Assembly: GCA_003245635.1 (NCBI GenBank) | Contig: QKCO01000016.1 | Span: 1-46,321 of the forward strand | Source of the DNA: Treponema sp. | GTDB taxonomy: Bacteria; Spirochaetota; Spirochaetia; Treponematales; Breznakiellaceae | Reading direction: 5' to 3' | DNA length: 46,321 nt | Shown here: positions 1 through 20,154 of the stretch, one piece after another | Numbering within the stretch: position 1 is the stretch's first letter | Layout: every line of letters begins with the position of its first letter | The notes under the pieces: generated by a model | Seen by the model: the letters and a program-made list of their open reading frames with translations, nothing else | Databases searched by the model: none | Told to the model about the DNA's origin: nothing | Made by a program: the position numbers and the translations under genes

Positions 1-78
1 TCAAGTTTCGATCCGCCCGAGAACGTCGTCAAGACGCTTATGACGCGCTTGCGGCGTTGACGAAAAGTCATTGCTGTT

Positions 79-107
79 TTGACAAATGACCGGCCCTGCG
101 CTAATAA
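79..107 (+). promoter_or_regulatory. sigma70-like promoter (TTGACA-17 nt-TAATAA) upstream of the yegP-like gene
   Basis: TTGACA at 79-84, a 17-nt spacer, then TAATAA at 102-107. The GGAGGA RBS at 131-136 and ATG at 140 follow. Confidence 0.35.
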
Positions 108-139
108 TTCAACAGCGAACTCATTCTACGGAGGACATT

Positions 140-322
140 ATGGCTGCAAAATTCGAGGTGTATCAGGACAAAGCAAAGAAGTTCCGCTTCAGGCTCAAAG
201 CCGGCAACGGACAGGTGATAGCGGTAGGCGAAGCCTACGAATCCAAGGCCTCCTGCTTGAACGGCATCGAGTCGATCAAGAAGAACGCCGCGGACGCCTC
301 AGTCGTCGACGTCGAGGAATAG
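140..322 (+). CDS. YegP/UPF0339 (DUF1508) family small protein
   Basis: ATG at 140 preceded by GGAGGA. The translation MAAKFEVYQDKAKKFRFRLKAGNGQVIAVGEAYESKASCLNGIESIKKNAADASVVDVEE has the single-repeat DUF1508 pattern (FRFRLKAGNGQVIA...Y.SK). Confidence 0.65.
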   Translation: MAAKFEVYQDKAKKFRFRLKAGNGQVIAVGEAYESKASCLNGIESIKKNAADASVVDVEE

Positions 323-326
323 CTTT

Positions 327-383
327 TACAAGGGGCTGTCCAAAAAGTTCGTAACACTTGTTTGGACAGCTTCCTTCTTGCGG
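327..383. repeat. ~57-bp intergenic palindromic element, copy 1
   Basis: The core GCTGTCCAAAAAGTTCGTAACACTTGTTTGGACAGC (335-370) is a 10-bp-arm inverted repeat, followed by TTCCTTCTTGC. It lies between the convergent ends of the yegP-like and 2-hydroxyacid dehydrogenase genes and is highly similar to the copy at 3345-3401. Confidence 0.5.
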
Positions 384-405
384 GTCAGCCTTTTTCGGAA
401 AACGG

Positions 406-1365
406 TCAGAGCTTCGGTTTGTTGACCGGCCAGCTCGGCGCCTTCCCCGAAAGCACTTCATCGATGCACCTTGCCGCATGCAGCGCCATGCGCAGGGTCG
501 CTTCTGCGGTCAAAGCCGCCGTATGCGGCGACAGGATCACGTTCTGCAAGCTCAACAGCGGATTGTCGGATCGAGGCGGCTCCGGGTCCAGCACATCCAG
601 GCCGGCCCCGGCTATGCGCCCCGACTTCAGGAACTCGTATATGTCCTCCTCGTTCACCACTTCGCCGCGCGCCGCGTTTACGAGATACGCGCTCGGCTTC
701 ATCAAGCCCAGCAGCTTCCTGTCGACGATCTTCTTCGTTTCCGCCAGGGCAGGCAGATGCAGGCTTATGAAATCCGCATTCTTGAACACGTATTCGATAT
801 CGGTCACGATTTCGGCATCGGGTACATCGCGGACGCTCTTGACGAAGGGGTCGTAGGCCAGGATTTTCATGTCCAAGCCGAAACGCGCTTTCCGGGCGAC
901 TAGGGAGCCGATGCGCCCCGCCCCCACGATGCCCAGCGTCTTGCCTTCCAGGTCGCAGCGTTTCGCCCGATTGCGGTACTCCCAGTCGCCGGCCCTCGCC
1001 GCCGCATCGCAGCGGACGGAATCCCGCGCAAGCGCGATCAGCATGCCGACGGCGTACTCGGCCACCGAGCCGGAGTTCGATTCCGGCGCGTTGGTGACCC
1101 ATATGCCGCGCTCGGCGGCGGCTGCGCAGTCGATATTGTCCACGCCGACGCCGTGCCGCGCTATCACCTTCAGCTTTTTGCCTGCTTCGATCACTTCCTT
1201 CGGGAAGGGCGCCGTCCGCGCCAGGATCGCGTCGCAATCGACGACGTCGGCTTTGATCGCTTCGATCGAGGCGCCGCTTCCCATTCTGATCTCGTATCCG
1301 CGATCGGTTAGATACTTCTTTCCCTCCGCCGCGATATCCTGCGGAATAAGAACGGTGAAACCCAT
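406..1365 (-). CDS. D-isomer-specific 2-hydroxyacid dehydrogenase (glyoxylate/hydroxypyruvate reductase / PGDH-like)
   Basis: The likely start is ATG at 1365 (MGFTVLIP), preceded by AGGGGG. It has the NAD-binding motif GIVGAGRIGS and the catalytic region typical of the D-2-HADH family (LHLP...NAARG...D...SPH). Confidence 0.85.
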   Translation of the reverse strand: MGFTVLIPQDIAAEGKKYLTDRGYEIRMGSGASIEAIKADVVDCDAILARTAPFPKEVIEAGKKLKVIARHGVGVDNIDCAAAAERGIWVTNAPESNSGSVAEYAVGMLIALARDSVRCDAAARAGDWEYRNRAKRCDLEGKTLGIVGAGRIGSLVARKARFGLDMKILAYDPFVKSVRDVPDAEIVTDIEYVFKNADFISLHLPALAETKKIVDRKLLGLMKPSAYLVNAARGEVVNEEDIYEFLKSGRIAGAGLDVLDPEPPRSDNPLLSLQNVILSPHTAALTAEATLRMALHAARCIDEVLSGKAPSWPVNKPKL

Positions 1366-1431
1366 ATTACCCCCTGAATCAAGCAGCGCTTTCGTCTTTG
1401 ACACCGGCGGGAGCATTGCGCTCCCGCTCGC

Positions 1432-2157
1432 CTACTTCGCGTTGCGCAAGGCGGCCATTTGGGTCCGCCATTCCTTCAGCGCCGCAAGATCCACTTCCTT
1501 GCCTTCGGCTATCGCTTTCCGGCAGCCGTCGAGAACCGGCATTTCGGCGGCGGCCGCTTTGCGGCAAGCGTCGCCCAGCTCGTGGGCGATCTCGTTCGGA
1601 ATCAGCACGACGCCGTGAACGTCCGCGGCCAGCAGATCTCCGGGCTTCACGGTCACGCCGGCGAAGGTCACCGGGCAGTCGTATTCCTCGATGTGGATAT
1701 ACCCGTGGGTGACCAGCAGGCACTTGGCGAAAAAGCCGAAGCCCAAGGGACCGACCTCATGGAGATCGCGCACGCCGCCGTTGGTGATCGTGCCCACCGC
1801 ACCCAGCGATTTATGCACGGTCGCGTTGACTTCGCCCCAGAAAGAGCCGACCGGTACCGGATCGATATCCTCGATGACGGCGATCGACGGACGCGGGGTC
1901 TTCTGCAGGACCCCGTAGTATTTCATCCAGTTTTCCAGATGCGCCGGGGTCGGCGGGTTGGCGGCCGACACTTTCGCCGTGCACGCGTACCCGATCATCG
2001 TCTTGCCGTACGGCAGAATGCACTTTATCTCCGGCGTCATGGCGCCTTCGATCCTCGAGCGAAGACCGAAACGCTCGATGGCGTTGGCGATGGTCGGTGT
2101 ATCGAATCCCCGCAGGCCTGCGACCTGGGCCGCCGTCAATTGCTTATTCGCTTCCAT
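1432..2157 (-). CDS. RraA-family protein (4-hydroxy-4-methyl-2-oxoglutarate / 4-carboxy-4-hydroxy-2-oxoadipate aldolase or oxaloacetate decarboxylase-like)
   Basis: 241 aa with AAGGAG upstream of the ATG at 2157. The RraA/MenG-like fold signature (GFDTPTIANA...GDLLAADVHGVVLIP) is present. Confidence 0.75.
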   Translation of the reverse strand: MEANKQLTAAQVAGLRGFDTPTIANAIERFGLRSRIEGAMTPEIKCILPYGKTMIGYACTAKVSAANPPTPAHLENWMKYYGVLQKTPRPSIAVIEDIDPVPVGSFWGEVNATVHKSLGAVGTITNGGVRDLHEVGPLGFGFFAKCLLVTHGYIHIEEYDCPVTFAGVTVKPGDLLAADVHGVVLIPNEIAHELGDACRKAAAAEMPVLDGCRKAIAEGKEVDLAALKEWRTQMAALRNAK

Positions 2158-2194
2158 CAGCGCGTTCTCCTTGTTCTATCCGTCAGTCTCATTT

Positions 2195-3316
2195 TTAAGA
2201 AGAATAGTTGCCCAGCTGCTTCCAGACCGAGGTGACCTCGGCGTAGCTGGCCATCGTCACTCCGGGCTCGAGAATATTGCCGCTCGTAAAGACGAAGCCG
2301 CCGCCGGGGGCCCCGTACGTCAAGGCGCGGGAGGCTTCTTCGCGGATTTCTTCCTTCGTTCCGGATATCAGCGTTTCCACGTTCATCCCGCCGAACAAGC
2401 ATAGTTTGCCGCCGTAACGTTCCTTCAGGAGCTTGATGTCCATTCCGATGCTCGGCTGAATTCCGTGCCAGCCGTCGATCCCCATCTCGACGAAGGAGTC
2501 GAGCACGTCCCACATCACGCCGTCTCCATGCTTGATGAAGTATTTGCCTTTCGCGTGCACGCTGTCGCAGATCCGCTTCAAATACGGCTGGATGAATTCC
2601 TTATAGCGGTCGACGCCCATGATGAGGCTCTTGCTGTCCGCGTAGTCCTCGGTCTCCATAACCGCGTCGCAGCCCGCATCGATGAAGGCATCAGCGTACG
2701 CGATGAACTTATTGCATTCGATATCCGCGATCTTATGGACTTGTTCTGGCTCGATTATCATCCGGATAAGGAACTCTTCCATCCCGACGGTATTCAGATA
2801 GGGGAACGTTCCCCCCACCGGAGGCTTGCCGATGATGAAGTGCGTCTTGCCCAGCTTTTTTACGATCGCCTCCGCGATCTCCATTTCGCAGTCTTCGATA
2901 TGAGCGACCGGGTCCGCGAAGATCTTTTCGACTTCCGCGTCGGGGTCCGTCACCACGGGGCAAACGACATTTCCCGCTTCCGGGTTGAATTCGAACTTTT
3001 TCTTTCCGTCGGTGAAAGCATGGTCGGCGACGCGCTTATACGCGGAATAATCCTTTTTCTTGGGCGCCGCCGGGACCCGAACATAATCCCACCCCATCTT
3101 CTCCGTGAGGGCGACGATCGAATCTATGTAGTCCGCAACCACCTTGTCCCGGTTGCCGGACCATAAGCTGTCGAGCTCTTCCCATCCGTGGTAGCAGAGC
3201 GAACTGTGCCCCATCACCTCTTGGAAAAAGGTATAGTCGAAGGCATTCTCGCCCCGAGGCACGCGATCGGCCTCCCGATGGCCGAGAGCGGCGATCATTC
3301 GTTCTTTTGAAGTCAT
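2195..3316 (-). CDS. uroporphyrinogen decarboxylase (URO-D) family protein (MtaA/CmuA-like)
   Basis: 373 aa. The N-terminus MTSKERMIAALGHREADRVP and the overall length and pattern are typical of URO-D-family decarboxylases/methyltransferases of anaerobes. Confidence 0.75.
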   Translation of the reverse strand: MTSKERMIAALGHREADRVPRGENAFDYTFFQEVMGHSSLCYHGWEELDSLWSGNRDKVVADYIDSIVALTEKMGWDYVRVPAAPKKKDYSAYKRVADHAFTDGKKKFEFNPEAGNVVCPVVTDPDAEVEKIFADPVAHIEDCEMEIAEAIVKKLGKTHFIIGKPPVGGTFPYLNTVGMEEFLIRMIIEPEQVHKIADIECNKFIAYADAFIDAGCDAVMETEDYADSKSLIMGVDRYKEFIQPYLKRICDSVHAKGKYFIKHGDGVMWDVLDSFVEMGIDGWHGIQPSIGMDIKLLKERYGGKLCLFGGMNVETLISGTKEEIREEASRALTYGAPGGGFVFTSGNILEPGVTMASYAEVTSVWKQLGNYSS

Positions 3317-3344
3317 ATTGTCGTCCTACCTGGATCTCCAGAAG

Positions 3345-3401
3345 ATAAGAGGCTGCCCGAACAGTTCGTAGAACTTGTTCGGACAGCTTCCTTATTGCTG
3401 C
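3345..3401. repeat. ~57-bp intergenic palindromic element, copy 2
   Basis: The core GCTGCCCGAACAGTTCGTAGAACTTGTTCGGACAGC (3352-3387) is followed by TTCCTTATTGC. It shares about 46 of 57 positions with copy 1. A compensatory A-to-G / T-to-C pair in the arms maintains the stem. It lies between the HIBADH-family stop and the URO-D-family start. Confidence 0.5.
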
Positions 3402-4312
3402 TAAGCGGAAGCTACGGCAGCCTTCTTTCTCACTTCGACACCCGCCACTTCCTCGAAAACCTTGATGATCGCCGAAGCGTCTTCCCGGCCGTAGCCCTTT
3501 CCGTTCGCCCAGAGGAATACCTCGCGGGATGCGGCGGAAGTATACAAGGGCACGTTGAGCTCCCTGCCGGTTTTCAGGCAGATATCGATATCCTTGATCT
3601 GAATATCCAGAGCGCCGCGGGTGCTGAAGTCGCCGTTCAGCAGCGCGTCGATCTTGTTCTCGAACATCCAGGAGCTTCCGGCGCTTTTCCTGATGATGTT
3701 CGCCATGATCTCCGGATCCGCACCCGCTTTGGTTCCGAGCACCAGAGCCTCCGCCATGGCGACCAGGTGCACCGTCACCATGAGCTGATTCGCGGCCTTG
3801 ACGACCGATCCGATGCCGATCTCGTCACCGACTTTCACCGCGTTGGAGCCGACGGCGAGAATAGCGTCCTTGCATTTCTGGAAGACCCGCTCCTCGCCGC
3901 CGACCATGATGACCAGCGTCCCGTTGGCGGCGCCGACAGAGCCGCCGCTGACCGGCGCGTCGAGCACCTCGACGCCCAAGGCGGAAGCGGCTTTCGCGAT
4001 CTGCTTGATCTCCGAAGGCGCGATCGTGCTGGTGACGATCAAGGTGCTCCCCGGCTTCATCCCGGACAGCACGCCGCCTGAGGCGACGGTGCTCGACTCG
4101 ACCTGGGCGAAATTCAGCACCATGACGAACACGATCTCAGAACGCTCTCCGACTTCCTTCAGGTTCGACGCGCCGAAAGCGCCCAGGCCGACCATTTCCT
4201 GAATAGGCTCCGGACGGATATCGAAAACGGTCAGTTCATACCCGGCCTTCAGCAGATTCTTCGCCATCGATTTGCCCATCGAACCTAAACCGATGATTCC
4301 TACCTTCTTCAT
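3401..4312 (-). CDS. NAD-binding beta-hydroxyacid dehydrogenase (3-hydroxyisobutyrate dehydrogenase / tartronate-semialdehyde reductase family)
   Basis: ATG at 4312 (MKKVGIIGLGSMG) with AGGAG 6 nt upstream. The Rossmann motif GLGxMG and the conserved catalytic lysine region (KAANQ) are present. Confidence 0.85.
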   Translation of the reverse strand: MKKVGIIGLGSMGKSMAKNLLKAGYELTVFDIRPEPIQEMVGLGAFGASNLKEVGERSEIVFVMVLNFAQVESSTVASGGVLSGMKPGSTLIVTSTIAPSEIKQIAKAASALGVEVLDAPVSGGSVGAANGTLVIMVGGEERVFQKCKDAILAVGSNAVKVGDEIGIGSVVKAANQLMVTVHLVAMAEALVLGTKAGADPEIMANIIRKSAGSSWMFENKIDALLNGDFSTRGALDIQIKDIDICLKTGRELNVPLYTSAASREVFLWANGKGYGREDASAIIKVFEEVAGVEVRKKAAVASA

Positions 4313-4321
4313 ATTCAACTC

Positions 4322-5206
4322 CTAGAGCGTATCGATGACAGCCTGGATCTCTGTATCGCTGAGCGTGATGTACTTGCCGCCGCGAACAGCCGTATTCTCG
4401 AACATTTCCAGAGTCCAGATATCGAACTCGGGTTCATTCTTGAAAATGAACGTTTCCTGGCTGGGCCGGATGGTCACGTTCGGGTTGTACTTCCAGGTGA
4501 TGTCGAACACTTCCTCCGGATGCGCGAGGGAATAGGTGATCTTTCCGCGGTACTCGTCGCCGACCTTGTACACGCAGGGAGTCGCGTTGCAGATCTTCCA
4601 TCCGATGCTTTCCATCTCGCGGCGGGCGAACATATCCAGCACCTTGGGATCGAAATTGATCTCGGTATTGCAGTGGATATGGGTAATGCCTTCCTTCTCG
4701 AAGTTCTCGACGTAGTAGGTCAGCCGCTTCCATTGCCGGGTGTTCTTGAACCAGTTCCGGATTTCTTCCTCTTCCTCGTATCCGACGCATTTGAAATCGA
4801 ACTGGCTGAACCACTTGTCCATGTACTTCTTGCCCCACCACAGGAGGTTCGTGCCGGCCTCGCCCCGGTTGTTGTCCATGGGCTGCAGGATCTTGTCGGC
4901 GCTGTATTCCCAGAACCAGTCGGTGAGCGGCATGAACCCCTTCCCCGCCGGATGGAGACCGTGCAGCGCGGCCCGGCCGGGCCCCGGTCCGACATGATCG
5001 ATGGCGCGGTCGAGGATCAGCCCGTTCGCCTTCATGCTGGCCTCGACGATCGGTTCCAGGCACTTGTACTCGACCTGGTTGTCCACGAAGGCGTGCACGT
5101 GGTAGACGGGTTCCTGCGGATTCTTCCACAGATCCATCGTGTCCTTCCAATGCTTGGATTTAAAATAATCGCTGACTTCCTGTACGATCTTGCTTCGCGT
5201 ATTCAT
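4322..5206 (-). CDS. hypothetical protein (294 aa, aromatic-rich, no recognisable family)
   Basis: ATG at 5206 with AGGAGG 6 nt upstream, and the gene is followed directly by the next gene's RBS. Its GC is lower than the neighbours, and the W/Y/F/K/E-rich sequence contrasts with typical proteins in this window. Reading-frame codon bias is clear. Confidence 0.6.
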   Translation of the reverse strand: MNTRSKIVQEVSDYFKSKHWKDTMDLWKNPQEPVYHVHAFVDNQVEYKCLEPIVEASMKANGLILDRAIDHVGPGPGRAALHGLHPAGKGFMPLTDWFWEYSADKILQPMDNNRGEAGTNLLWWGKKYMDKWFSQFDFKCVGYEEEEEIRNWFKNTRQWKRLTYYVENFEKEGITHIHCNTEINFDPKVLDMFARREMESIGWKICNATPCVYKVGDEYRGKITYSLAHPEEVFDITWKYNPNVTIRPSQETFIFKNEPEFDIWTLEMFENTAVRGGKYITLSDTEIQAVIDTL

Positions 5207-5216
5207 TGAATTCCTC

Positions 5217-5237
5217 CTGGTATACCTTGTATACGTT
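5217..5237. promoter_or_regulatory. candidate GntR-family operator (TGGTATACCTTGTATAC)
   Basis: Perfect 8-bp palindrome GGTATACC (5219-5226) followed by TTGTATAC. It sits just 5' of the RBS of the 294-aa gene. A near-identical motif occurs at 42945-42966. Confidence 0.4.
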
Positions 5238-5311
5238 CGTTCTACAGACTTGCTGCGTCTCTTTACCGTTTGCTGAAACGTGAGTGTTCGGCTATGCCGT
5301 TCTTAGTTCAT

Positions 5312-6826
5312 TCACTTTTTTGTTATTGCCTCCTTGATCTTCCCGACGATCATCCGAGGAATCCCGATCTGACTCAGGATCGTGTAGACAATCATGGCGA
5401 GAACGATCAGCGCGATCGGCCGCGTAACGAAAGGAGCGAAACTGCCGTCCGCGCCCTGCAGCGCCCGCCGGATATTGGTATCCGCCAGGGGCCCCAGAAT
5501 CACTCCGAGCACGATGGGCGCGGCGGGGTACTTCAGGCGATCGAAGGCATAGCCGAGAAGGCCGAACAGGAACATGACATAGAGATCGAAGATATTGATG
5601 TTGAGCGCGTAGCTTCCGATAATGGACAGCACAGCGACGATCGGCATCAGGATATACGGCTTGACCTTCAGAATATTCGGCGCGACATGGCAGATTGCCA
5701 GCGCGAATATCCGCATCACGAAAGCGGCCAGCAGCAGTATTCCTCCCATCTTGAAAATGAAGGTGGGGAACTCGAACGAGAGCATGGGGCCCGGCCGGAT
5801 GCCGTGCAGCCACAGCGCTCCCAGAAGGACCGCCGCCGGAGCGCTTCCGGGGATGGCGAGGCTGAGCAGTGGTATCAGCGCTCCGCCGATCGCGGCGTTG
5901 TTCGCCGTCTCGGCGGCGATGACGCCGTCGTAGGAACCGGTGCCGAATTTCTCAGGAGTCTTGCTGGCTTTCTTAGCCTGGTCGTAGGAGAGCCAGGCGG
6001 CGACATCCTCGCCGACGCCAGGGATCGCGCCGATGAAGGTTCCGATGGCGCCGGAACGCAGTATCGTCGGCGTGAACCGTCTGAGCATGGAGAACATGCT
6101 CATCTTCTCGGTCTTGCCGATTCCCGTCACTTTCGCCTCGCCCGGCTCAGCGGACAATTCGGCGATCACGTTCGGGATTCCGAACAAGCCGATCATGGCG
6201 GAGACGAACGCGACGCCTCCGAGCAAACCCATAATGTTGAATGTGTATCGGGGATACGAATAGATTCCTTCGAAGCCGATCGTCGAAATCGCGAGCCCCA
6301 GGAGGCCACCGATCCACCCCTTGATAACCTTCCCGGTCGCCGATAGGGAACCGCAGATCATGACGCCGAAAATAGCCAGCAATGCGAACTCTGCCGAAGT
6401 GAAGTTCAGCGCCAGCTTCTGCAGCAGCGGAGTGAAGCCCGCCAGGCAGATCATCCCGAACAGCGTTCCCAAGAAGGAAGCTATGAACGAAAGTTTGAGC
6501 GCCGTGCCGCCCTCGCCCTTGACGGCGAGCGGATGGCCGTCGAGGACCGTCGCCGCGGCGGAACCCGTCCCCGGTATTCCGATCAGAACCGACGATATCG
6601 AACCGCCCGATATGCCGCCGACATAGATGCCGAGAAGCACTATAAGCGCGACGTCGGTCGACATTCCATATGTGAGCCCCGCGAGCAGCGCGATGCCCAT
6701 GGTCGCGGTAAGCCCCGGCAACGCGCCCATGATCAGTCCGGCGACGGAGCTTACGGCCAGCAACAGAATATTCTGCACGGTGATCAAGTGCACTAATTCG
6801 GTGAAGAGACCAATTATCGAGTTCAT
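5312..6826 (-). CDS. tctA: tripartite tricarboxylate transporter permease TctA
   Basis: 504 aa, polytopic, with a glycine-rich TctA signature (GALPGLTATMGIALL, GIYVGGISGGSISSVLIGIPG). GAGAGGA RBS upstream. Confidence 0.9.
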   Translation of the reverse strand: MNSIIGLFTELVHLITVQNILLLAVSSVAGLIMGALPGLTATMGIALLAGLTYGMSTDVALIVLLGIYVGGISGGSISSVLIGIPGTGSAAATVLDGHPLAVKGEGGTALKLSFIASFLGTLFGMICLAGFTPLLQKLALNFTSAEFALLAIFGVMICGSLSATGKVIKGWIGGLLGLAISTIGFEGIYSYPRYTFNIMGLLGGVAFVSAMIGLFGIPNVIAELSAEPGEAKVTGIGKTEKMSMFSMLRRFTPTILRSGAIGTFIGAIPGVGEDVAAWLSYDQAKKASKTPEKFGTGSYDGVIAAETANNAAIGGALIPLLSLAIPGSAPAAVLLGALWLHGIRPGPMLSFEFPTFIFKMGGILLLAAFVMRIFALAICHVAPNILKVKPYILMPIVAVLSIIGSYALNINIFDLYVMFLFGLLGYAFDRLKYPAAPIVLGVILGPLADTNIRRALQGADGSFAPFVTRPIALIVLAMIVYTILSQIGIPRMIVGKIKEAITKK

Positions 6827-6842
6827 TCGTTTTCCTCTCTGC

Positions 6843-7388
6843 TTACGGCAGGGGTATCAGCGCATAATGCGAGAACCCGTAACTGACGATGAAGGAAGTC
6901 AGACCGCTGATGATCGTTATCTTCGCAAGCACTTTCCAGCTGAATTTCTCGTCTTTGAAAACCATCATGGTGATGAACAGGTAAAGGAAGGTAGAAATCT
7001 CGTATTGCACCCGCCCGATCATTACGTAGATATAGAGGACCAGAAGTCCCGTCGCGATCGACCATCTCCGGAAATGGGCCGTCTTAAAATAGGCAAGAGC
7101 TCTCTTGATATCCTCGCGATGGATTCCCTTCGATTCGGGAACGATCTGAATGAATAGGATCGCGAGGGCGATGAACATGCCGATGCTGATGATGATGGGG
7201 AAAACAGCCGGCGCCGTATACCATTTCTGCGGATCTCCGGTCACCGACTCTACCGGCATGCGCAGCGCGCCTATGAAGTAGAAGATGGTCGCGATCAGCA
7301 AGATCCCTCCGAAGATGAGATCTTTTTTCCGTAGGATTCTATTCTGTTCTTGTTCTTCGGTCTCGGAAATGTCTCTTTCGTCTGCCAT
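6843..7388 (-). CDS. tctB: tripartite tricarboxylate transporter small subunit TctB
   Basis: Small 4-TM membrane protein between tctC and tctA. Start chosen as ATG at 7388; the TTG at 7403 is also possible. Confidence 0.65.
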   Translation of the reverse strand: MADERDISETEEQEQNRILRKKDLIFGGILLIATIFYFIGALRMPVESVTGDPQKWYTAPAVFPIIISIGMFIALAILFIQIVPESKGIHREDIKRALAYFKTAHFRRWSIATGLLVLYIYVMIGRVQYEISTFLYLFITMMVFKDEKFSWKVLAKITIISGLTSFIVSYGFSHYALIPLP

Positions 7389-7440
7389 ACCGTCCACCTG
7401 CAAACCCGGCTCGGGATTTACGTCTTACCGTTCGTCGATC

Positions 7441-7470
7441 ACCGGAAAACGATTCTGATGCATGCCGCGC
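7441..7470 (-). promoter_or_regulatory. intercistronic stem-loops downstream of tctC
   Basis: CATGC-CGC-GCATG (7441-7453) overlaps ATGGGCGG-TTAG-CCGCCCAT (7451-7470; 8-bp perfect stem). No immediate U-tract follows on the minus-strand RNA. Confidence 0.35.
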
Positions 7471-7525
7471 ATGGGCGGTTAGCCGCCCATACACGGCAGT
7501 TCCAGATAAGCCAGCGCCCCTTGGC

Positions 7526-8557
7526 TTAAGGCTTCGCGATCCCGAAATCGCTGGGGGATTTCTTGGCCGCACCGAGGTCGTACAACGCCCAGGAATAAAC
7601 GGAATCCAGCTCCTTGGTTAGGTCGGCGGCTTCTTTTCCCTGGATACCGAGAAGATCGAACTTGGTATCGTTCGAAAGCTTTTTCATCAAATCCGATTTC
7701 ATCGCCACGGTGAACGCTTTCTGGTATGCATCCTTGATGTTCTGGGGCGTATCGCCGGGGATGCCGACGCCGACCCATACTTTTGGAGCAGGGAGCTTAT
7801 TGAAATCGGGATACAGTCCTGAAATCGCCGGAATCTCGCCGAATCCTTCCATCTTTACCGGCTCTTTCTCGATAACCGCGAGCGGCTTCAGTTTTCCGGC
7901 AAGAATGTACTCCCGCTGCTCCGCAAGTCCGGTGAGCGTGAAATCGACCTCGTGCGAGAGCGCCGCGACCATAGAAGGCTGGCTGCCTTCGTAGGGCATA
8001 TGATTGATTTCGAGTCCGGATACCTTCTCAAGCTGGGAAACTTTGAGATCCCATACGCTGCCGGCGGAGGAGCCGGAGGACTTGAGCTTTTTCGATTTGC
8101 CGGCGTTGATCAAATCCTGGATCGATTTATAGGGAGAATCTTCCGGAACGGACAAAACGCCGGGAGTCCCCATGGACATCAGGTAGTCCCATTTATCGTT
8201 GGTCACGTCGAAAGCGCCCACGACGTTGAGGGAATGCACGCCGGAAGAGCAGCCGAACAAAGTATAGCCGTCATGCTTCTGATTCCAAACATAATTCGCG
8301 GCAACGCCGCCCGCGCCGCCGGTCATGTTCACGACGGAAAAGGGAACGCCGAAATACTCTTCGAAAGCTTTTCCCAGGCCGCGCGCGGAAAGATCCGTGG
8401 CGCCGCCGGCTCCTGCAAATACGACGATGGATACCGGCCGAGCGGGCTTCCACTCTCCGGAGGACGCGCTGCTCGCTTCCTTTCTACCGTTGGCGAATGC
8501 CGTTGCCCCCAACAGCAAACAGAGCAGCAGAACCAGTGAATTTTTACCGAACTTCAT
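7526..8557 (-). CDS. tctC: tripartite tricarboxylate transporter substrate-binding protein TctC (Bug family)
   Basis: 343 aa with an N-terminal signal peptide and Bug/TctC family motifs (GGATDLSARGL...VNMTGGAGGV). AAGGAGG RBS upstream. Confidence 0.9.
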   Translation of the reverse strand: MKFGKNSLVLLLCLLLGATAFANGRKEASSASSGEWKPARPVSIVVFAGAGGATDLSARGLGKAFEEYFGVPFSVVNMTGGAGGVAANYVWNQKHDGYTLFGCSSGVHSLNVVGAFDVTNDKWDYLMSMGTPGVLSVPEDSPYKSIQDLINAGKSKKLKSSGSSAGSVWDLKVSQLEKVSGLEINHMPYEGSQPSMVAALSHEVDFTLTGLAEQREYILAGKLKPLAVIEKEPVKMEGFGEIPAISGLYPDFNKLPAPKVWVGVGIPGDTPQNIKDAYQKAFTVAMKSDLMKKLSNDTKFDLLGIQGKEAADLTKELDSVYSWALYDLGAAKKSPSDFGIAKP

Positions 8558-8792
8558 ACTAGATCCTCCTTAGTTCAACCCTGCAGGATTACTGCTTTAG
8601 TCGACTTTAGAAATCATTTTAATACACTTCTGAATATTGTCAATTTATTTCGCTTTATAATAAATCTATTTTTTGATATAATGAATTCATTTATAGATAA
8701 ATATCGCCTTATTTAAAGAGCTGAGAAACATTCTTGACGGAAAAGTTCCGAGGGAGTAATCTGATTTCACTTTAGTAAGATAGGATTCATAT
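8558..8792. promoter_or_regulatory. AT-rich divergent promoter region (tctC leftwards, gntR rightwards)
   Basis: 235 bp that is visibly far more AT-rich than the rest of the window, lying between the tctC and GntR starts, with multiple TATAAT/TTGAC-like hexamers. Confidence 0.5.
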
Positions 8793-9545
8793 ATGACTGA
8801 AAAGAATTCAAACAAACAAAAACCCTCGATGGATAAAGAACCGAGCGATGCTATCGTCATGGTCCACAACGCTTTGCGGGAAAAAATCATGAACAAGGAA
8901 CTGCTGCCGGGTGAAAAGATCAACCAGATTGCGGAGGCCAACCTACTTCATGTCAGCCGCACACCCGTGGTCAATGCATTGCATCGGCTTGAGTCGGAGG
9001 GCTTGGTAGACCGAACCCAGAATTCAGGTTTTACCGTACACCGCCTATCCATAGGTGAGCTTCAGGAGTTATTCGATCTGCGTGAGGTTTTCGACATCAT
9101 AGTAGCCAACGATTTGGCGATAAACGCTACCGATGAGGAAATCGACGTTCTCGAGAATCTATTTTCCCACTATTTAACGCATCCTGAAGAGTTGACGGTA
9201 GAGACCTACCGTGCGCTGGACCTGGAATTTCATACGCTGCTTGTCAAATACTGCCGCAACAGCATGATGCATAAGATCTACGATAATTTTCAGATACTTG
9301 CGAGAACCTATACGGCCGGACTGATCCGCCACTATACAGAAACGCTGCAGGAACACATGACCATCATAAACGCCTTTCGGCAACACGATCCGAAGGCCGC
9401 GGAAAAGGAAATGCGAGAACACAATGCTAAGACGACCTCTTTGATTCATGAAACCATATCGGGACTCAAGCGAATGGGGCTTGATCCCGGCACGATCCAT
9501 GTCGATGATGTCATGCTTTCGCGAAACGATCGCGCGGCGCCCTAA
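8793..9545 (+). CDS. GntR-family transcriptional regulator (FadR/FCD C-terminal domain)
   Basis: N-terminal winged HTH (GEKINQIAEANLLHVSRTPVVNALHRLESEGLV) plus an FCD-type helical C-terminal domain, 250 aa. Confidence 0.85.
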   Translation: MTEKNSNKQKPSMDKEPSDAIVMVHNALREKIMNKELLPGEKINQIAEANLLHVSRTPVVNALHRLESEGLVDRTQNSGFTVHRLSIGELQELFDLREVFDIIVANDLAINATDEEIDVLENLFSHYLTHPEELTVETYRALDLEFHTLLVKYCRNSMMHKIYDNFQILARTYTAGLIRHYTETLQEHMTIINAFRQHDPKAAEKEMREHNAKTTSLIHETISGLKRMGLDPGTIHVDDVMLSRNDRAAP

Positions 9546-9637
9546 TATCGGAGGAATGGAGCCGAAGCCATCCATCGGATTTATTTGACATTTAAGTCAT
9601 ATTTGAGAAATTTCTTCCTTATAGAAGGAGAGCCTTC

Positions 9638-10057
9638 ATGTTCGATTTCAGCCTTTCCTGGGTTCCGCTCGTCGTCGTCGCGCTCGCCAACTTCTTCATG
9701 AGCTGGCTCTGGTATTCCCCGATCCTGTTCATGAAGCCCTGGGCAAAAGCCCTCGGCACCTACGGCAAGACGGAAATGACAGAAGCCGAGAAGCGCGCCA
9801 TGCCCTTCCTTTTCGCCAGCGGACTCCTCTCGTCCTTCATCCTATCTTTCGGCCTGCAGGCGGTGGTCCGCGGACTCGGCGCCGAAAGCTTCGCGCAGGG
9901 AGCGCTCGCCGGAACGGTGCTGTGGGCGGTCTTCGCGCTCACCCACAGCCTCAATACGCTCTGGGAGGGCCGCAAACCGATCGTGCTCCTAATCAACAAC
10001 GGCCTGTTCCTGCTCACTTACGCGCTTTTCGGCGGTACCGTCGCCGTCTGGCGTTGA
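9638..10057 (+). CDS. DUF1761 family membrane protein
   Basis: The MFDFSLSW... start, 4 TM segments and 139 aa are typical of the DUF1761 architecture. GAAGGAG RBS upstream. Confidence 0.65.
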   Translation: MFDFSLSWVPLVVVALANFFMSWLWYSPILFMKPWAKALGTYGKTEMTEAEKRAMPFLFASGLLSSFILSFGLQAVVRGLGAESFAQGALAGTVLWAVFALTHSLNTLWEGRKPIVLLINNGLFLLTYALFGGTVAVWR

Positions 10058-10126
10058 CGCCGCCGCGCCGTTCTTCCTGGACTTTTCGCGCGATTACCGC
10101 TATTTTACCCGGATCAAGGAGTAACC

Positions 10127-10633
10127 ATGGACAACACGCGCGTACTGTTCGAAACGACCCTCGGAAATATCACGATAGAGCTCGACGACGAGAAGGCGCC
10201 CAATACCGCCAAGAATTTCGCCGACTACGCCCGCTCGGGCTTCTACGACGGCACGATCTTCCACCGGATCATCCCCGGCTTCGTCGTGCAGGGCGGCGGT
10301 ATGGAGAGCGGCATGAAGCAGAAAAAGGGCATGGACCCGATCCGCAACGAGGCGACCAACGGCCTCAAGAACCTGCGCGGAACCCTCTCCATGGCGCGCA
10401 CAAACGATCCTCATTCCGCCACGAGCCAGTTCTTCATCAACCTGACGGACAACGCGGCGCTCGACCACAAGGCGCCGACCGGCGCGGGCTGGGGCTACGC
10501 CGTTTTCGGCAAGGTGGTCGAAGGCATGGACGTGGTCGACGCGATGGCGAAGGTTCCGACCGGCAGTGCGGGCTTCCACGACGACGTGCCGAAGACCGAC
10601 ATTTCCGTCGTCAAGGCGTCCGTGGTCGGCTGA
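10127..10633 (+). CDS. ppiB: peptidyl-prolyl cis-trans isomerase, cyclophilin type
   Basis: Cyclophilin signature ([14 protein letters not shown]...GTLSMAR...SQFFIN); 168 aa; AAGGAG RBS upstream. Confidence 0.9.
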
Positions 10634-10657
10634 TCGCGGTCCCCCGGCGGGAAGCCG

Positions 10658-11455
10658 CTACGCTTTCCGCTCTTTCTTTCCCCAGCCCACGGCCGCGCGC
10701 ATGCGGGCGTGGGCGGCGGGGGAGAATTCCAATTTAACCGAAAGAGAAGCGAAGCCCGGCGCGTCGGCCGACTGCGCGGCTTCGGAACATTCGCCCTTCA
10801 GCGTGCAGGAGAGATCCCCCTCGGAGGGCTCGAACTCCACGATATCGCCGGGAGCGGGAAGCGGTCCTTCGAATTCGCCGAAAACGCGCATCGACCGCGC
10901 TGATATAGCGACGACCTTCAATCGATCCGCGACGCAGCCTTCCTTCAGGATCGATACGTGCGCGCATTGGAGGGTCTTCTCGATCTGCTCGCCGGACAGG
11001 TCCCCGTCCGGCGCTTCCTTGTAGAAGAGCTCCGCTTCGTCGACATTCATGAAATACGACACGAGCAGTTCCTTGAACGCGAGAGGCGCGGTCGAAAACT
11101 CGATGTCGATGAAGCAGTAGGGGGAGGCGGGATCGGGCTTGCGGAACGCGACGATGCGGCAGACCAGAAAGAAGCTCTCCGGCTTCGAGCTGTAGGGCGA
11201 TTTCCAGGTGATCGAGAATTTCTGCTGCTTCGCCGCGTACGGCGAGAAGAAGCCGACTTCGCGTTCGCTCAAGAAAGCCAGAAGACTCGCCTTGCCGAGC
11301 GAAAGGTCGAACGGCACGCAGGAAACGAAGAATTCCTCGATCCGCAAATGGATGCTTTTCTTTATCAGCCCGAGCCGATCGAAAACCGCCGGCGTCAGCC
11401 GGAGCGTCCGATCCTGGTAGGCCGCTGCTTTCTCGTTGACCAGTCGGGAGTCCAT
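10658..11455 (-). CDS. hypothetical protein, possible PilZ-domain (c-di-GMP binding) protein
   Basis: Start ATG at 11455 (MDSRLVNEK) with GGAG upstream. The N-terminal half has an RxxR...(~30 aa)...DxSxG arrangement reminiscent of PilZ, but the match is weak. Confidence 0.45.
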   Translation of the reverse strand: MDSRLVNEKAAAYQDRTLRLTPAVFDRLGLIKKSIHLRIEEFFVSCVPFDLSLGKASLLAFLSEREVGFFSPYAAKQQKFSITWKSPYSSKPESFFLVCRIVAFRKPDPASPYCFIDIEFSTAPLAFKELLVSYFMNVDEAELFYKEAPDGDLSGEQIEKTLQCAHVSILKEGCVADRLKVVAISARSMRVFGEFEGPLPAPGDIVEFEPSEGDLSCTLKGECSEAAQSADAPGFASLSVKLEFSPAAHARMRAAVGWGKKERKA

Positions 11456-11566
11456 CGTTCCCACTTTACTCCAAGGCACGGCGGCGGTAAAGATCGGCCG
11501 AACGGCGGAGCGCCTTTTTGCATGCGAAATCTGTTCGGTTTCAGCCCGAACGTGCTATAACCGGGC

Positions 11567-12148
11567 ATGGAACGAACACGGATCGAAACCCTCTGCGTCT
11601 ACTGCGGATCCAATTACGGGATATCGCCCGAATACAAGGCCGGCGCCGAAGCGCTCGCCGACGCCATGGCGAAACGCGGCATATCATTGGTGTACGGGGC
11701 GGGCAACGTCGGCCTCATGGGAGCGCTCGCCGATCGGCTCATCGAACGGGGAGGACGGGCCGTCGGCGTGATTCCGCGCAAGCTCGCCGACCTCGGGCTG
11801 TCCCACGGCGGACTACATGAAACGGTCATCGCCGAAACGATGCGCGAACGCAAGGCGGCCATGATCGAGCGCGGCGACGCCTTCGTCGCCCTGCCCGGCG
11901 GCATCGGCACCATCGAGGAGCTTGCGGAGCTCATGACGCTCAACCAGCTCGGGTACACGGCCAAGCCGATCGGCCTGCTCGATTCGGGCGGCTTCTGGCA
12001 GCCGTTCATCGCCTTCATGGAGCACGTCGTCGCGGAGGGCTTCCTGAAGCGGGCCCAGCTAGACCAACTGGTCGTCGAATCCGATCCCGAACGGCTCCTC
12101 GATCGCCTCGCCTCCGCCGAGACGCGCTACGTTCCCAAATGGAATTGA
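11567..12148 (+). CDS. LOG-family cytokinin riboside 5'-monophosphate phosphoribohydrolase (TIGR00730)
   Basis: Has the CVYCGS...GG...PGGIGTIEE motifs diagnostic of the LOG/YvdD family; 193 aa. Confidence 0.85.
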   Translation: MERTRIETLCVYCGSNYGISPEYKAGAEALADAMAKRGISLVYGAGNVGLMGALADRLIERGGRAVGVIPRKLADLGLSHGGLHETVIAETMRERKAAMIERGDAFVALPGGIGTIEELAELMTLNQLGYTAKPIGLLDSGGFWQPFIAFMEHVVAEGFLKRAQLDQLVVESDPERLLDRLASAETRYVPKWN

Positions 12149-15982: not shown

Positions 15983-17068
15983 TTACGGCGTGCTCTTAAT
16001 CGGCGGCGGACAGGTCGATTGCCTGACGACCAGCGGCGCGGGAAGAAACACCCGCTTCGGACCGGCATGCGGGTGCTCGATCGCGTATAGAAGCATGCGG
16101 GCGGCTTCCGCGCCGATGAGCTCGGGACAGGTCGAAATGGTCGTAAGGGGAGGACGCCAGGATGCCGACCAGGCGCTGTCGTCGAACCCGACGACGGAAA
16201 AATCCTTCCCCGCTTCCATCCCGAGGGTGTTGAGCCCGAAGACCACTCCGTAGGCGATGCTGTCGTTGTAGCAGAACGCGGCGGTCGGCGGATCGGACAG
16301 GCGGCGTTCAAGAAGCTCCCGGATCGCCTCGCTCCCTTCATGCAGCGATATGTTGGTGGGAATGTTGAGCGCCGGATCCACGGGAATGCCCGCCTCTTCG
16401 TGGGCGAGCAGATAGCCCCGCTCGCGATCCCCGCGGGGAGAAGCGCTGCAGCTGCCGCCGATGAACGCGATGCGCCGATGCCCGAGGGAGATCAGATGAT
16501 TCACCGCGGAGAACGAGCCTTCCACATTGTTGCCCTCGACATAGCTCGACTTGAGTCCCTTGACGTAGCGGGTGAACATAACGTGAGGGACGCCGCTGCC
16601 GGTCAACGCCGAGAGATCCTGCTTCCTGGTACCGCGCGCGGGACAAATGAGGATGCCGTCGGTGCCGTGCTCGAACATCGCTTCGATCGATTTTCTCTGC
16701 CGCTCGATGCTTTCGGACGTGTTCGCCAGCAGCACGACGCGGCCCGCCTTTTCGAATTCCTTCTCCACGCCGACGATGAGCTCGGCGAAAAACGGGTTGG
16801 TGATATCGGCGACGATCAGTCCGACGGTATGGGATTTCTGCGAGCGAAGCGTGGCGGCTGCGCGGTTGTACACATAACCTAGCTTTTGGATCGATCTAAC
16901 GACGCGGACCCGCGTCTCCTGCGCGACGGCGGTGCTCCCGCGAAGCACGAGCGAAACGGTCGATCTGGATACGCCCGCATCCGTCGCCACGTCGGTGAGC
17001 GTCGCCTTTTTAAGCGTTCGGCCGTTATCCTCCACGATAAATCCCCATTCGAAAAGCTTGTTCGACAA
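15983..17068 (-). CDS. LacI-family transcriptional regulator
   Basis: HTH (ATLTDVATDAGVSRSTVSLVLRG) plus a periplasmic-binding-protein-like sugar-binding domain. The start is uncertain (TTG at 17068 or an internal GTG). Confidence 0.8.
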   Translation of the reverse strand: MSNKLFEWGFIVEDNGRTLKKATLTDVATDAGVSRSTVSLVLRGSTAVAQETRVRVVRSIQKLGYVYNRAAATLRSQKSHTVGLIVADITNPFFAELIVGVEKEFEKAGRVVLLANTSESIERQRKSIEAMFEHGTDGILICPARGTRKQDLSALTGSGVPHVMFTRYVKGLKSSYVEGNNVEGSFSAVNHLISLGHRRIAFIGGSCSASPRGDRERGYLLAHEEAGIPVDPALNIPTNISLHEGSEAIRELLERRLSDPPTAAFCYNDSIAYGVVFGLNTLGMEAGKDFSVVGFDDSAWSASWRPPLTTISTCPELIGAEAARMLLYAIEHPHAGPKRVFLPAPLVVRQSTCPPPIKSTP

Positions 17069-17103
17069 CCCTATCCAGGTTGGATCGGGTTGTCAAGTTT
17101 ACC

Positions 17104-17118
17104 CTCGAACGATTCGAG
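17104..17118. promoter_or_regulatory. candidate LacI-family operator (CTCGAA-CGA-TTCGAG)
   Basis: 6-bp perfect inverted repeat with a central CG, nested inside the outer 7-bp inverted repeat TTGTCAA...TTGACAA, in the divergent lacI/dctP promoter region. Confidence 0.4.
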
Positions 17119-17182
17119 TTTGACAAATCGGAATATGCGTCTTACCCTGATTTAGATCGATCCAATAAACAAGGAGGACTTG

Positions 17183-18211
17183 ATGAAACGCACGCTTTCT
17201 GCATTGGCATTGATCGCCCTCGCGGCGACCCTATCGCTTCCCGTCTTCGCCGGCGGTTCGAAGGACACGGCACCTTCCGCGGCGCCCGCCCCGCAGACGA
17301 TCAAGCTCGTCGGCCATACCATGCTCCCGAAGGAGCATGTCTATTACCGGACGATCGAAAAATTCGCCGAGCTGGTTAACCAATACTACAAGGGGCCGGT
17401 CAAGATCGAATGGGATCTCCACCACTCGGGCGATATCGGCACGGAAAAGGACGCCATCGAGTACATGATCCAGGGCACGGCCATCGACTTCTCGATCATC
17501 TCCCCCGCGTGGATCGCCAATTGGGACAAGACCGCGTCCTTCATCGACGCGCCCTTCATATTCAAGAGCGTCGACCATTGGAACAAGTGCATCGACGCCG
17601 ACGTGTTCGCGCCCATCCAGAAAACCATGATCGGCAAGGGCGTCCGCTTCATCGGCTACGGCGGCGGCGGCGTGCGCAACATCATCAGCAAGAAGGAAAT
17701 CCGCACTATCGATCAGTTCCCGACCCTGCAGATGCGCGTCCAAGGATCCCCGCTGCACCAGGCAGCCTTCTCCGCGACCGGCATCAAGGCGACTCCGATG
17801 GACTACATGGAAGTCTACAACGCCATCAAGACCGGCGTCCTCGACGCGCTGGAGAACGAGCCCGCGGGCCTTCAGGGCATGAAGTTCTATGAAGTCGCGC
17901 CGTACTACATCCTGACCGCCCACCAGATCACGACCCGCATCCTCGGCTTCAGCGAAAAGAAATTCCAGAGTCTGCCGAAAGATCTCCAGGATGCCGTTCT
18001 GAAAGCGGGCAAGGAAGCCTCGGCTTTCCACCGCAAGACCGAAGTCGCCGAAGGCGACGGCATCCTCAAACTCCTTGTCGAAAAGAACGGACTGAAGATC
18101 ATCCCCTTCGACAACACCGAGATGCGCCGCCGCGCCATGCCGGCGGTGGAGAAATTCGCCAAGGATAACGGGGCCTTCGAAGTCCTCGAAGCGATCAACG
18201 CCGTCAACTGA
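17183..18211 (+). CDS. dctP: TRAP transporter substrate-binding protein DctP family
   Basis: ATG at 17183 with AAGGAGG 5 nt upstream; signal peptide with AGGSKD; DctP-family fold; 342 aa. Confidence 0.9.
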   Translation: MKRTLSALALIALAATLSLPVFAGGSKDTAPSAAPAPQTIKLVGHTMLPKEHVYYRTIEKFAELVNQYYKGPVKIEWDLHHSGDIGTEKDAIEYMIQGTAIDFSIISPAWIANWDKTASFIDAPFIFKSVDHWNKCIDADVFAPIQKTMIGKGVRFIGYGGGGVRNIISKKEIRTIDQFPTLQMRVQGSPLHQAAFSATGIKATPMDYMEVYNAIKTGVLDALENEPAGLQGMKFYEVAPYYILTAHQITTRILGFSEKKFQSLPKDLQDAVLKAGKEASAFHRKTEVAEGDGILKLLVEKNGLKIIPFDNTEMRRRAMPAVEKFAKDNGAFEVLEAINAVN

Positions 18212-18313
18212 CGATCGGCGGCCCGCGACTCGAACAGTCTATTGAACGCTCACGGATCCGGGGGTTAAAAGCCCTCGGATCTTTGTTCCAAGCCGATCAC
18301 ACGGAAGGTTCGC

Positions 18314-20142: not shown

Positions 20143-20154
20143 CCGGAGCGTTCG

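Follow-up and report, generated by a model that had tools for sequence, protein, structure and literature searches.

What does a gene without relatives of known function do inside an otherwise familiar operon for the uptake and breakdown of organic acids? The question is raised by a contig of Treponema sp. (QKCO01000016.1, assembly GCA_003245635.1), of which positions 1 to 46,321, the whole stretch analysed, are called the window here. At 4322..5206 its minus strand holds an ATG-to-TAG coding sequence for a protein of 294 aa, to which we give the working name ORFX. ORFX is a genuine, cytoplasmic and co-transcribed part of a hydroxy-carboxylate or sugar-acid catabolic operon. Its family is undescribed and has no sequence or structural relative of known function; that this family is real and linked to the catabolism of hydroxy acids is very probable. 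The best explanation of the whole is that ORFX is a metal enzyme that works with the dehydrogenase encoded next to it through enolate chemistry, a reading that we place a little on the favourable side of even.

The gene itself is well defined. An initial annotation, made from the sequence alone, had described a 294-aa orphan gene at 4322-5206 and left its strand unstated; the reading frame exists, on the minus strand, and its translation holds all three peptides quoted at the time. Its location within the tct operon is also borne out, as it lies between tctCBA and four enzyme genes on the same strand. Met1 is the aligned N-terminus across 15 homologues. The strong ribosome-binding site that had been reported, AGGAGG, is found at 5213..5218 of the minus strand (cctcct on the plus strand), six nucleotides 5′ of the ATG at 5204-5206. 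At the other end the TAG stop (4322-4324) overlaps a GGAG (4319-4322) that stands 6 nt 5′ of the ATG at 4312 of the dehydrogenase gene, whose product opens with MKKVGIIGLGSMG, a Rossmann-fold start; ORFX and the dehydrogenase are therefore translationally coupled, in agreement with the tight coupling proposed earlier. A consensus scan of the 105-nt gap between tctA and ORFX found no promoter- or terminator-like site, and an Rfam search of positions 1-12000 gave no match, with nothing to suggest a riboswitch or attenuator in the same gap. Expression with the operon, which had been called almost certain, is thus the prediction of the ribosome-binding site, the translational coupling and the empty gap together. 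No signal peptide or long hydrophobic helix was seen in the sequence or the model. ORFX is under strong purifying selection: against its 89%-identical orthologue, nonsynonymous divergence (pN) is 0.062 and synonymous divergence (pS) 0.836, the latter saturated.

Is ORFX really an orphan, as it had been called? A word-indexed search of 5.8 billion proteins returned 15 clusters of 36-89% identity, none with a Pfam domain, and an exhaustive hidden Markov model (HMM) search of 1.84 billion representatives, each standing for a cluster at 50% identity, returned 109 matches, 50 of them below 1e-30 and most 280-310 aa long. The window protein itself scores 404 bits against the family HMM, aligns end to end and has all the conserved residues listed below. 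The records of the carrier genomes are metagenome-assembled genomes labelled Oceanispirochaeta (the 89%-identical member), Clostridia, Dehalococcoidales or Dehalococcoidia (seven), Desulfobacterales, Rhodovulum and Bathyarchaeia, and the source names of the family members seen are all “hypothetical protein”. The family is rare and spread over several phyla, mostly in anaerobes, and ORFX is no orphan. The accompanying statement that it could not be placed in any known family has proved right. Neither Pfam (E up to 0.01) nor NCBIfam gives a match, and neither does so for ten distant members scanned with E allowed to reach 1, the glyoxalase clan included. A sequence search of the PDB returned only chance matches (E of 0.1 or above), whether the query was ORFX alone or a 42-sequence profile. 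Foldseek on an AlphaFold model, a check that had been suggested, found nothing that passes an E of 1e-3 among 350,542 chains. A literature search found no paper on this combination of genes or on an equivalent family.

The protein has a clear internal repeat. When the N-terminal half (residues 1-140) and the C-terminal half (residues 141-294) of the 42-sequence alignment were compared by hhalign, they matched over 123 columns with a probability of 99.7% and an E of 1.4e-25, so ORFX is a tandem duplication; by this sequence comparison the ~290-aa family appears to have arisen from a module of ~145 aa. The halves, delimited by hhalign and by the secondary structure of the models, are encoded at 4787..5206 and 4325..4786 of the minus strand. 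Two independent and confident models were used, an AlphaFold2 model from the family alignment (pLDDT 90.4, pTM 0.85) and one of a 36%-identical member that has the same order of elements (pLDDT 89.3, pTM 0.85). Each half begins with two helices carrying a [YW]-F-x4-W motif and continues with a beta-alpha-beta-beta-beta unit, after which come a short strand, another strand and a helix. DSSP places the five elements of the unit, in the two models, at residues 34-43, 47-60, 70-75, 78-84 and 94-101 of the first half, and at 174-183, 187-200, 205-215, 218-227 and 233-240 of the second.

The first strand of each unit carries a His-x-His pair: H36-V-H38 (CAC GTG CAC, 5093..5101, minus strand) on predicted strand 34-43, and H176-I-H178 (CAT ATC CAC, 4673..4681, minus strand) on predicted strand 174-183. 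Both side chains of such a pair on a strand face the same side. Over 91 full-length family members, H176, H178 and P187 are kept in every one, and H36 and H38 in 84 each. Other conserved positions are R67 (85 members), K222 (82), an acidic residue at 235 (Asp or Glu, 89), W20 and W124 (85 each) and W159 (83, with Phe in the other 8). R67 and K222 have no counterpart in the opposite half, and a site built with them would therefore be asymmetric.

A clue to function comes from the company the family keeps. Annotated loci were read for members from 89% to about 26% identity to ORFX, after a genome scan that used a narrower family alignment. A constant theme joins them: ORFX stands with a carboxylate importer and an NAD(P) hydroxy-acid dehydrogenase, and often with pyruvate-forming aldolases, dehydratases and a GntR/FCD regulator. 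In the 12 distinct loci from outside Dehalococcoidia, a carboxylate importer is near ORFX every time, of the tripartite tricarboxylate transporter (TTT) type in seven, ABC in three and TRAP in two. A dehydrogenase of the 3-hydroxyisobutyrate dehydrogenase (HIBADH) type is present in eight, the others having GFO/IDH/MocA or 2-hydroxyacid dehydrogenases; a GntR/FCD regulator is present in eight (in the window and beside members in L001, L002, L004, L015, L022, L025 and L027), and RraA, HpcH or DHDPS aldolases in six. ORFX and adjacent HIBADH copies also co-diverge. Measured against the window pair, the identities of ORFX and dehydrogenase run 89/81, 72/72, 71/63, 63/60, 59/59, 56/55 and 41/42%. 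The conserved synteny, this co-divergence and the invariant His pairs make plausible the earlier suggestion that ORFX is a catalytic component of the pathway.

The individual loci vary this theme. At 89% identity (L001) the order is tctCBA, ORFX, HIBADH, URO-D, RraA and a 2-hydroxyacid dehydrogenase; at 72% (L002) it is tctCBA, ORFX and HIBADH, with an HpcH aldolase upstream and a second paralogue-HIBADH pair 5 kb off beside genes for a 2-hydroxyacid dehydrogenase, a cyclase and a DHDPS-type aldolase. The 71% locus (L004) has tctCBA, ORFX, HIBADH, an ORFX paralogue and RraA, with tctC and tctB detected by tblastn only, and the 62% locus (L018) has an ABC importer, HIBADH, ORFX, HIBADH, an ORFX paralogue and, further on, a 2-hydroxyacid dehydrogenase, RraA and DHDPS. 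At 59% (L019) tctCBA, ORFX and HIBADH are followed by a short-chain dehydrogenase/reductase (SDR), and at 56% (L020) the order is 2-hydroxyacid dehydrogenase, RraA, ORFX, tctB, tctA, HIBADH and tctC. Among the remaining loci, L025 combines LarA, GntR/FCD, two ORFX copies, HIBADH and an ABC importer; L027 has ORFX with a TRAP importer and a 2-hydroxyacid dehydrogenase; L015 has a TRAP importer, GntR/FCD and ORFX; and L016 has LysR, a 2-hydroxyacid dehydrogenase, an ABC importer, ORFX and another 2-hydroxyacid dehydrogenase. In Dehalococcoidales the neighbours are PrpD/MmgE, an SDR, a second copy, a glyoxalase and a 2-hydroxyacid dehydrogenase, or a cyclase and an SDR. A conserved 139-aa open reading frame (ORF) follows an ORFX copy in two of these loci (L012:9174-9593 and L008:10951-11370); the L012 copy, which was the one scanned, has no Pfam match.

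The 37%-identical member (P0141, in L022), which belongs to a gut Firmicute, is the most frequently sampled, being indexed in 86 blocks of the collection. Its cluster runs from GntR/FCD and a GarD/UxaA-type dehydratase through tctCBA and ORFX to a GFO/IDH/MocA dehydrogenase, and ends with a LarA-like enzyme (of the nickel-pincer racemase family), a 2-oxoacid:ferredoxin oxidoreductase and a CoA-transferase. A serine recombinase gene lies directly upstream of this cluster (L022:3940-17019; also in L023 and L024), which may be a mobile sugar-acid fermentation island.

The window holds one copy of ORFX and no paralogue by HMM scan, and the same scan of all loci found two or three paralogues in seven of them. 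Such copies lie at L002:15618-16484, L004:11833-12699, L018:338-1210 and 9959-10825, L019:3349-4230 (minus strand), L012:8221-9141 and L025:9014-9922. They are sometimes adjacent, and each is often beside its own HIBADH-type dehydrogenase. Such paralogues could be partners in hetero-oligomers or enzymes for different isomers.

What do the partners in the window say about the pathway? Upstream of ORFX on the minus strand lie tctC (7526-8557), tctB (6843-7403) and tctA (5312-6826), assigned by the Pfam families TctC, TctB and TctA; the window TctC matches TTT binding proteins of varied specificity. The coupled gene downstream (3401..4312, minus strand, likely start ATG at 4312) encodes a beta-hydroxyacid dehydrogenase of the HIBADH family with the Pfam domains NAD_binding_2 and NAD_binding_11. 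In NCBIfam it scores highest with the models for L-threonate dehydrogenase and for 2-hydroxy-3-oxopropionate (tartronate semialdehyde) reductase, below the cut-off in both cases, and in the PDB it matches best 3cky, a 2-(hydroxymethyl)glutarate dehydrogenase, and 1vpd, a tartronate semialdehyde reductase. By Pfam and NCBIfam, the remaining genes of the minus strand encode a URO-D/MtaA-like protein of 373 aa (2195-3316), of which only the C-terminal ~220 aa match URO-D, an RraA-like pyruvate aldolase/oxaloacetate decarboxylase (1432-2157; nearest PDB entry CHA aldolase, 3noj) and a D-2-hydroxyacid dehydrogenase (406-1416), nearest in the PDB to McyI and also to phosphoglycerate and glyoxylate reductases. 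By analogy with their relatives, these partners point to a route from a C4-C6 hydroxy-di/tricarboxylate or sugar acid to pyruvate without phosphorylation. An [FeFe]-hydrogenase large subunit with a ferredoxin-like domain (36959-38305, minus strand, Pfam scan) indicates an anaerobic or fermentative host and has a bearing on the chemistry that is plausible for ORFX.

How, then, might ORFX act? We infer metal binding, reaction type and substrate class alike from this material. H36/H38 and H176/H178, with the acidic residue at 235, would bind a divalent metal where the two halves meet; R67 and K222 may hold the substrate carboxylate or carboxylates, and the conserved Trp residues may pack against a polyol or acid chain. 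ORFX would act one step before or after the adjacent NAD(P) beta-hydroxyacid dehydrogenase, on an acid imported by TctCBA, and the RraA-type aldolase and the 2-hydroxyacid dehydrogenase could complete the pathway to pyruvate. The reaction would pass through a metal-stabilised enolate or enediolate, with ketol isomerisation or epimerisation as the first candidate and decarboxylation of a beta-oxo-acid as the next. Known acid-sugar pathways typically couple a hydroxy-acid dehydrogenase or reductase to a metal-dependent ketol-isomerase, as in GlxR-Hyi, UxaB/UxuB-UxaC and KduD-KduI, and by analogy ORFX may play the part of Hyi, OtnI, UxaC or KduI without being homologous to them. The pair of the dehydrogenase Ltn2D and the isomerase OtnI belongs to the same established pattern in acid-sugar pathways (PMC12994016). 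Neither the neighbouring genes scanned nor the precomputed annotation of the loci of relatives shows a Hyi/OtnI-type (PF01261) gene, and dehydratases, aldolases, LarA-type epimerases and cyclase-type hydrolases stand beside ORFX in those loci. The known pairing, the lack of a PF01261 gene and the presence of the other enzyme types together favour an enolate or enediolate reaction on the substrate or product of the dehydrogenase. That the reaction is specifically an isomerisation or epimerisation is a narrower and distinctly tentative proposal.

A bolder form of the metal-enzyme proposal, which we think possible and rather doubtful, is that ORFX founds a new superfamily with an unseen pseudo-twofold fold, a four-His metal site and an activity for which no gene is known. 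It might then convert an acid sugar or a hydroxy-di/tricarboxylate in anaerobic catabolism, for example as an orphan ketol-isomerase, epimerase or decarboxylase step, a suggestion as speculative as the superfamily itself. Obligatory coupling to the beta-hydroxyacid dehydrogenase, a third element of this form, is likewise conceivable and no better than doubtful.

Several points weigh against a metal enzyme coupled to the dehydrogenase. Sequence and structure searches give no homologue of known activity, and about 8% of members lack H36 and H38. Seven Dehalococcoidales loci do not have the transporter and HIBADH context and show PrpD, SDR, cyclase or formate-dehydrogenase-like neighbours. With neither a dehydratase nor a kinase evident in the window operon, a full series of reactions cannot be drawn up, and the context would equally allow a lactonase or other hydrolase, a dehydratase or a binding protein.

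Could ORFX serve another step of the pathway? It might be a dehydratase, a lactonase or other hydrolase, or a decarboxylase that needs no cofactor and has no link with the dehydrogenase step, which we consider a minority prospect to be taken seriously. A His-rich site is compatible with zinc or manganese hydrolases and lyases, the lack of an obvious dehydratase in the window operon leaves room for one, and the beta-oxo-acids that HIBADH-type enzymes produce are often substrates of decarboxylases, 3OtnC being a case for comparison (PMC12994016). Many of the relatives' loci, however, already hold dehydratases (GD_AH in L022, ILVD_EDD in L002 and PrpD in L012), some hold hydrolases (Cyclase in L002 and L010), and the step left uncovered is an isomerisation or decarboxylation; the one-to-one co-divergence with the dehydrogenase also favours consecutive steps. 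The same co-divergence, which is with the dehydrogenase and not with the transporter, speaks against a non-enzymatic ligand-binding accessory, such as a sensor, a chaperone for the substrate or a protein that partners the TTT permease on its cytoplasmic side. We judge such a role unlikely, even though ORFX lies directly after tctA in six independent contexts (the window, L001, L002, L004, L019 and L022) with gaps of 12-187 nt, high Trp is typical of sugar-binding surfaces, and nothing of known catalytic function is homologous. Members are found beside TRAP or ABC importers as well, or beside no importer, so that the family is not tied to TTT, and on this ground a transporter subunit was rejected; secondary structure and the lack of a Pfam match give no DNA-binding or membrane segment, and the invariant His pairs with the Arg, Lys and acidic residues resemble an active site.

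A different kind of alternative makes ORFX a highly diverged member of the vicinal oxygen chelate (VOC) superfamily of glyoxalase I, extradiol dioxygenases and HPPD, acting as an O2-dependent dioxygenase. Each half does contain a beta-alpha-beta-beta-beta unit, His on beta1 is a typical metal ligand of VOC enzymes, and the top Foldseek matches are HPPD, hydroxymandelate synthase, glyoxalase, BphC and methylmalonyl-CoA epimerase. These matches are not significant, however (E at best 5e-3, probability at most 0.33, TM about 0.18), the glyoxalase clan of Pfam is not matched even at an E of 1, and hhalign comparisons with a VOC alignment, made for the family as a whole and for each half, gave probabilities of 0.2-0.3%. 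That alignment, of 23 sequences, was built from a glyoxalase-family neighbour of a member and represents one VOC subfamily, which limits its reach. With the profile comparison negative, likeness to VOC is limited to the beta-alpha-beta-beta-beta units and membership is unsupported. The anaerobic hosts (the [FeFe]-hydrogenase of the window and relatives in Clostridia, Dehalococcoidia, Desulfobacterales and Bathyarchaeia) argue against O2 chemistry as well, and an O2-dependent dioxygenase was rejected on both counts; this alternative is quite improbable. Were ORFX a VOC-like isomerase or epimerase of non-oxidative kind, the proposal would coincide with the metal-enzyme explanation preferred here.

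Does the odd composition of the gene betray a foreign origin? ORFX is indeed rich in aromatic residues, Lys and Glu, as first noticed. Of the 42 window genes that encode 100 aa or more, it ranks second in Trp (4.1% against a window mean of 1.3%) and in Lys plus Glu (17.0% against 11.2%), and fifth in Trp, Tyr and Phe together (13.9% against 9.0%). The contrast with neighbours of roughly 65% GC that the initial annotation had drawn does not stand, as GC in the operon genes spans 0.50-0.63, and ORFX, at 0.56 against a window mean of 0.62, is sixth lowest of the 42. The comparison of GC and codon usage proposed with it was run against the genes of the window. The whole deficit lies at codon positions 1 and 2 (GC1 0.52, GC2 0.35), and the low GC follows from a protein rich in Lys, Glu, Asn, Ile, Phe and Tyr. 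GC3 is 0.82, at the top of the operon and level with the window mean of 0.825. When each gene's synonymous choices were scored under the usage of all other genes, ORFX was the fifth most typical of 43, the least typical being the regulator, tctC and tctB. The odd composition is therefore a property of the protein and not of foreign DNA. The idea of a recent insertion of a foreign gene into the tct operon has the lower total GC in its favour; against it stand the GC3, the codon usage, the amino-acid make-up that accounts for the low GC, the placing of atypical codon usage in the regulator and tctC/tctB, and the tctA-ORFX-dehydrogenase order maintained in relatives of 59-89% identity, and horizontal acquisition of this kind is very improbable. 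Compositional oddity in the locus, if any, is at the regulator and transporter end and not at ORFX: the regulator gene (8793-9545) has the least typical codon usage (rank 1 of 43) and a GC3 of 0.59, and GC3 in tctC and tctB is low, at 0.68-0.69.

The upstream end of the operon has signals of its own. A sigma-70-like site, TTGACA-16 nt-TAAAAT (8616..8643, minus strand), lies upstream of tctC and is likely the operon promoter, a call that rests on a consensus match of 11/12. A second near-consensus site lies on the plus strand at 8654-8682, and the region holding both, before the regulator gene, is AT-rich, with about 31% GC. The GntR/FCD regulator (Pfam GntR and FCD) is divergently transcribed at 8793..9545 on the plus strand. 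As for the URO-D/MtaA-like protein, it sits here in a non-haem, non-methanogenic catabolic operon, and in L020 a URO-D-like gene is near pterin-binding (MtrH-like) and B12-binding genes, a context that hints, by analogy, at a corrinoid methyltransferase role. Elsewhere in the window a second acid-uptake locus (15983-21678) comprises a LacI-family regulator (15983-17068, minus strand), TRAP DctP (17180-18211), a small ORF that is likely DctQ (18314-18835), DctM (18832-20142) and a CoA-transferase (20155-21678). A 378-aa ORF at 33901-35037 (plus strand) has no Pfam match, and an enolase-superfamily (MR_MLE) gene resembling acid-sugar dehydratases lies at 38391-39674 (minus strand).

New acid-sugar and hydroxy-acid pathways are customarily sought where a TTT, TRAP or ABC importer stands with genes for dehydrogenases and aldolases, and ORFX marks such a pathway in anaerobes of several phyla. 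The type of operon is familiar; its ORFX component is undescribed, is without a solved structural neighbour, and has a clear internal repeat and a conserved His cluster. Knowledge of the reaction would supply a function for about 100 sequence clusters, would probably define a new metal-enzyme scaffold, and would give meaning to the co-evolving HIBADH-type dehydrogenases that are now mis-annotated or generically named. The annotation of carbon-source use in anaerobes of gut, sediment and bioreactor would improve with it. ORFX is a solid, testable lead for enzyme discovery that overturns nothing.

How does ORFX compare with systems that are known? The transporter components beside it are no kin: the three upstream genes match TctA, TctB and TctC (PF01970, PF07331 and PF03401), and ORFX has no Pfam match. 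Foldseek to 3lho, a DUF1338/HglS-like protein (VOC-related 2-oxoadipate dioxygenase/decarboxylase), gives an E of 0.086 and a probability of 0.10, again with no Pfam match. With the amidohydrolases (HxH...H...H...D) ORFX shares a strand HxH, a conserved acidic residue and occurrence in catabolic operons. Those enzymes place their HxH on strand 1, a single His on strands 5 and 6 and an Asp on strand 8, whereas the second pair of ORFX is the HxH of its duplicated half; no (beta/alpha)8 barrel is predicted, the ground on which an amidohydrolase was rejected, and neither Pfam nor NCBIfam gives a match. VOC proteins, which dominate the weak fold matches, consist of paired, internally duplicated beta-alpha-beta-beta-beta modules with His on the first strand of each, an arrangement that ORFX may resemble, and they include metal-dependent isomerases and epimerases that act via enediolates. 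Unlike their modules of about 60-70 aa, that of ORFX is about 145 aa long and adds two N-terminal helices and a C-terminal strand and helix. Where VOC enzymes use a single His on beta1 and a Glu on beta4, ORFX has HxH pairs on beta1, and the acidic residue of beta4 is present only in module 2 (D/E235, in 89 of 91); beta4 of module 1 has F98 and Y101.

The closest likeness concerns not fold but place in the pathway. The hydroxypyruvate isomerase Hyi and the 2-oxo-tetronate isomerase OtnI are xylose-isomerase-like (beta/alpha)8 barrels of PF01261, unlike ORFX, which has no Pfam match and is modelled as two beta-alpha-beta-beta-beta units with added helices. Any kinship with Hyi/OtnI, the uronate isomerase UxaC and the ketol-isomerase KduI would be one of role alone, as read from gene context. 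The partner dehydrogenase scores best against models for L-threonate dehydrogenase and tartronate-semialdehyde reductase. Like Hyi and OtnI, ORFX is a small cytoplasmic protein, presumably an enzyme, encoded beside an NAD(P) hydroxy-acid dehydrogenase or reductase in an acid-sugar or hydroxy-acid operon with its own importer and a GntR-type regulator. It shares this logic with gcl-hyi-glxR and with Ltn2D-OtnI, the latter pair being described in PMC12994016.

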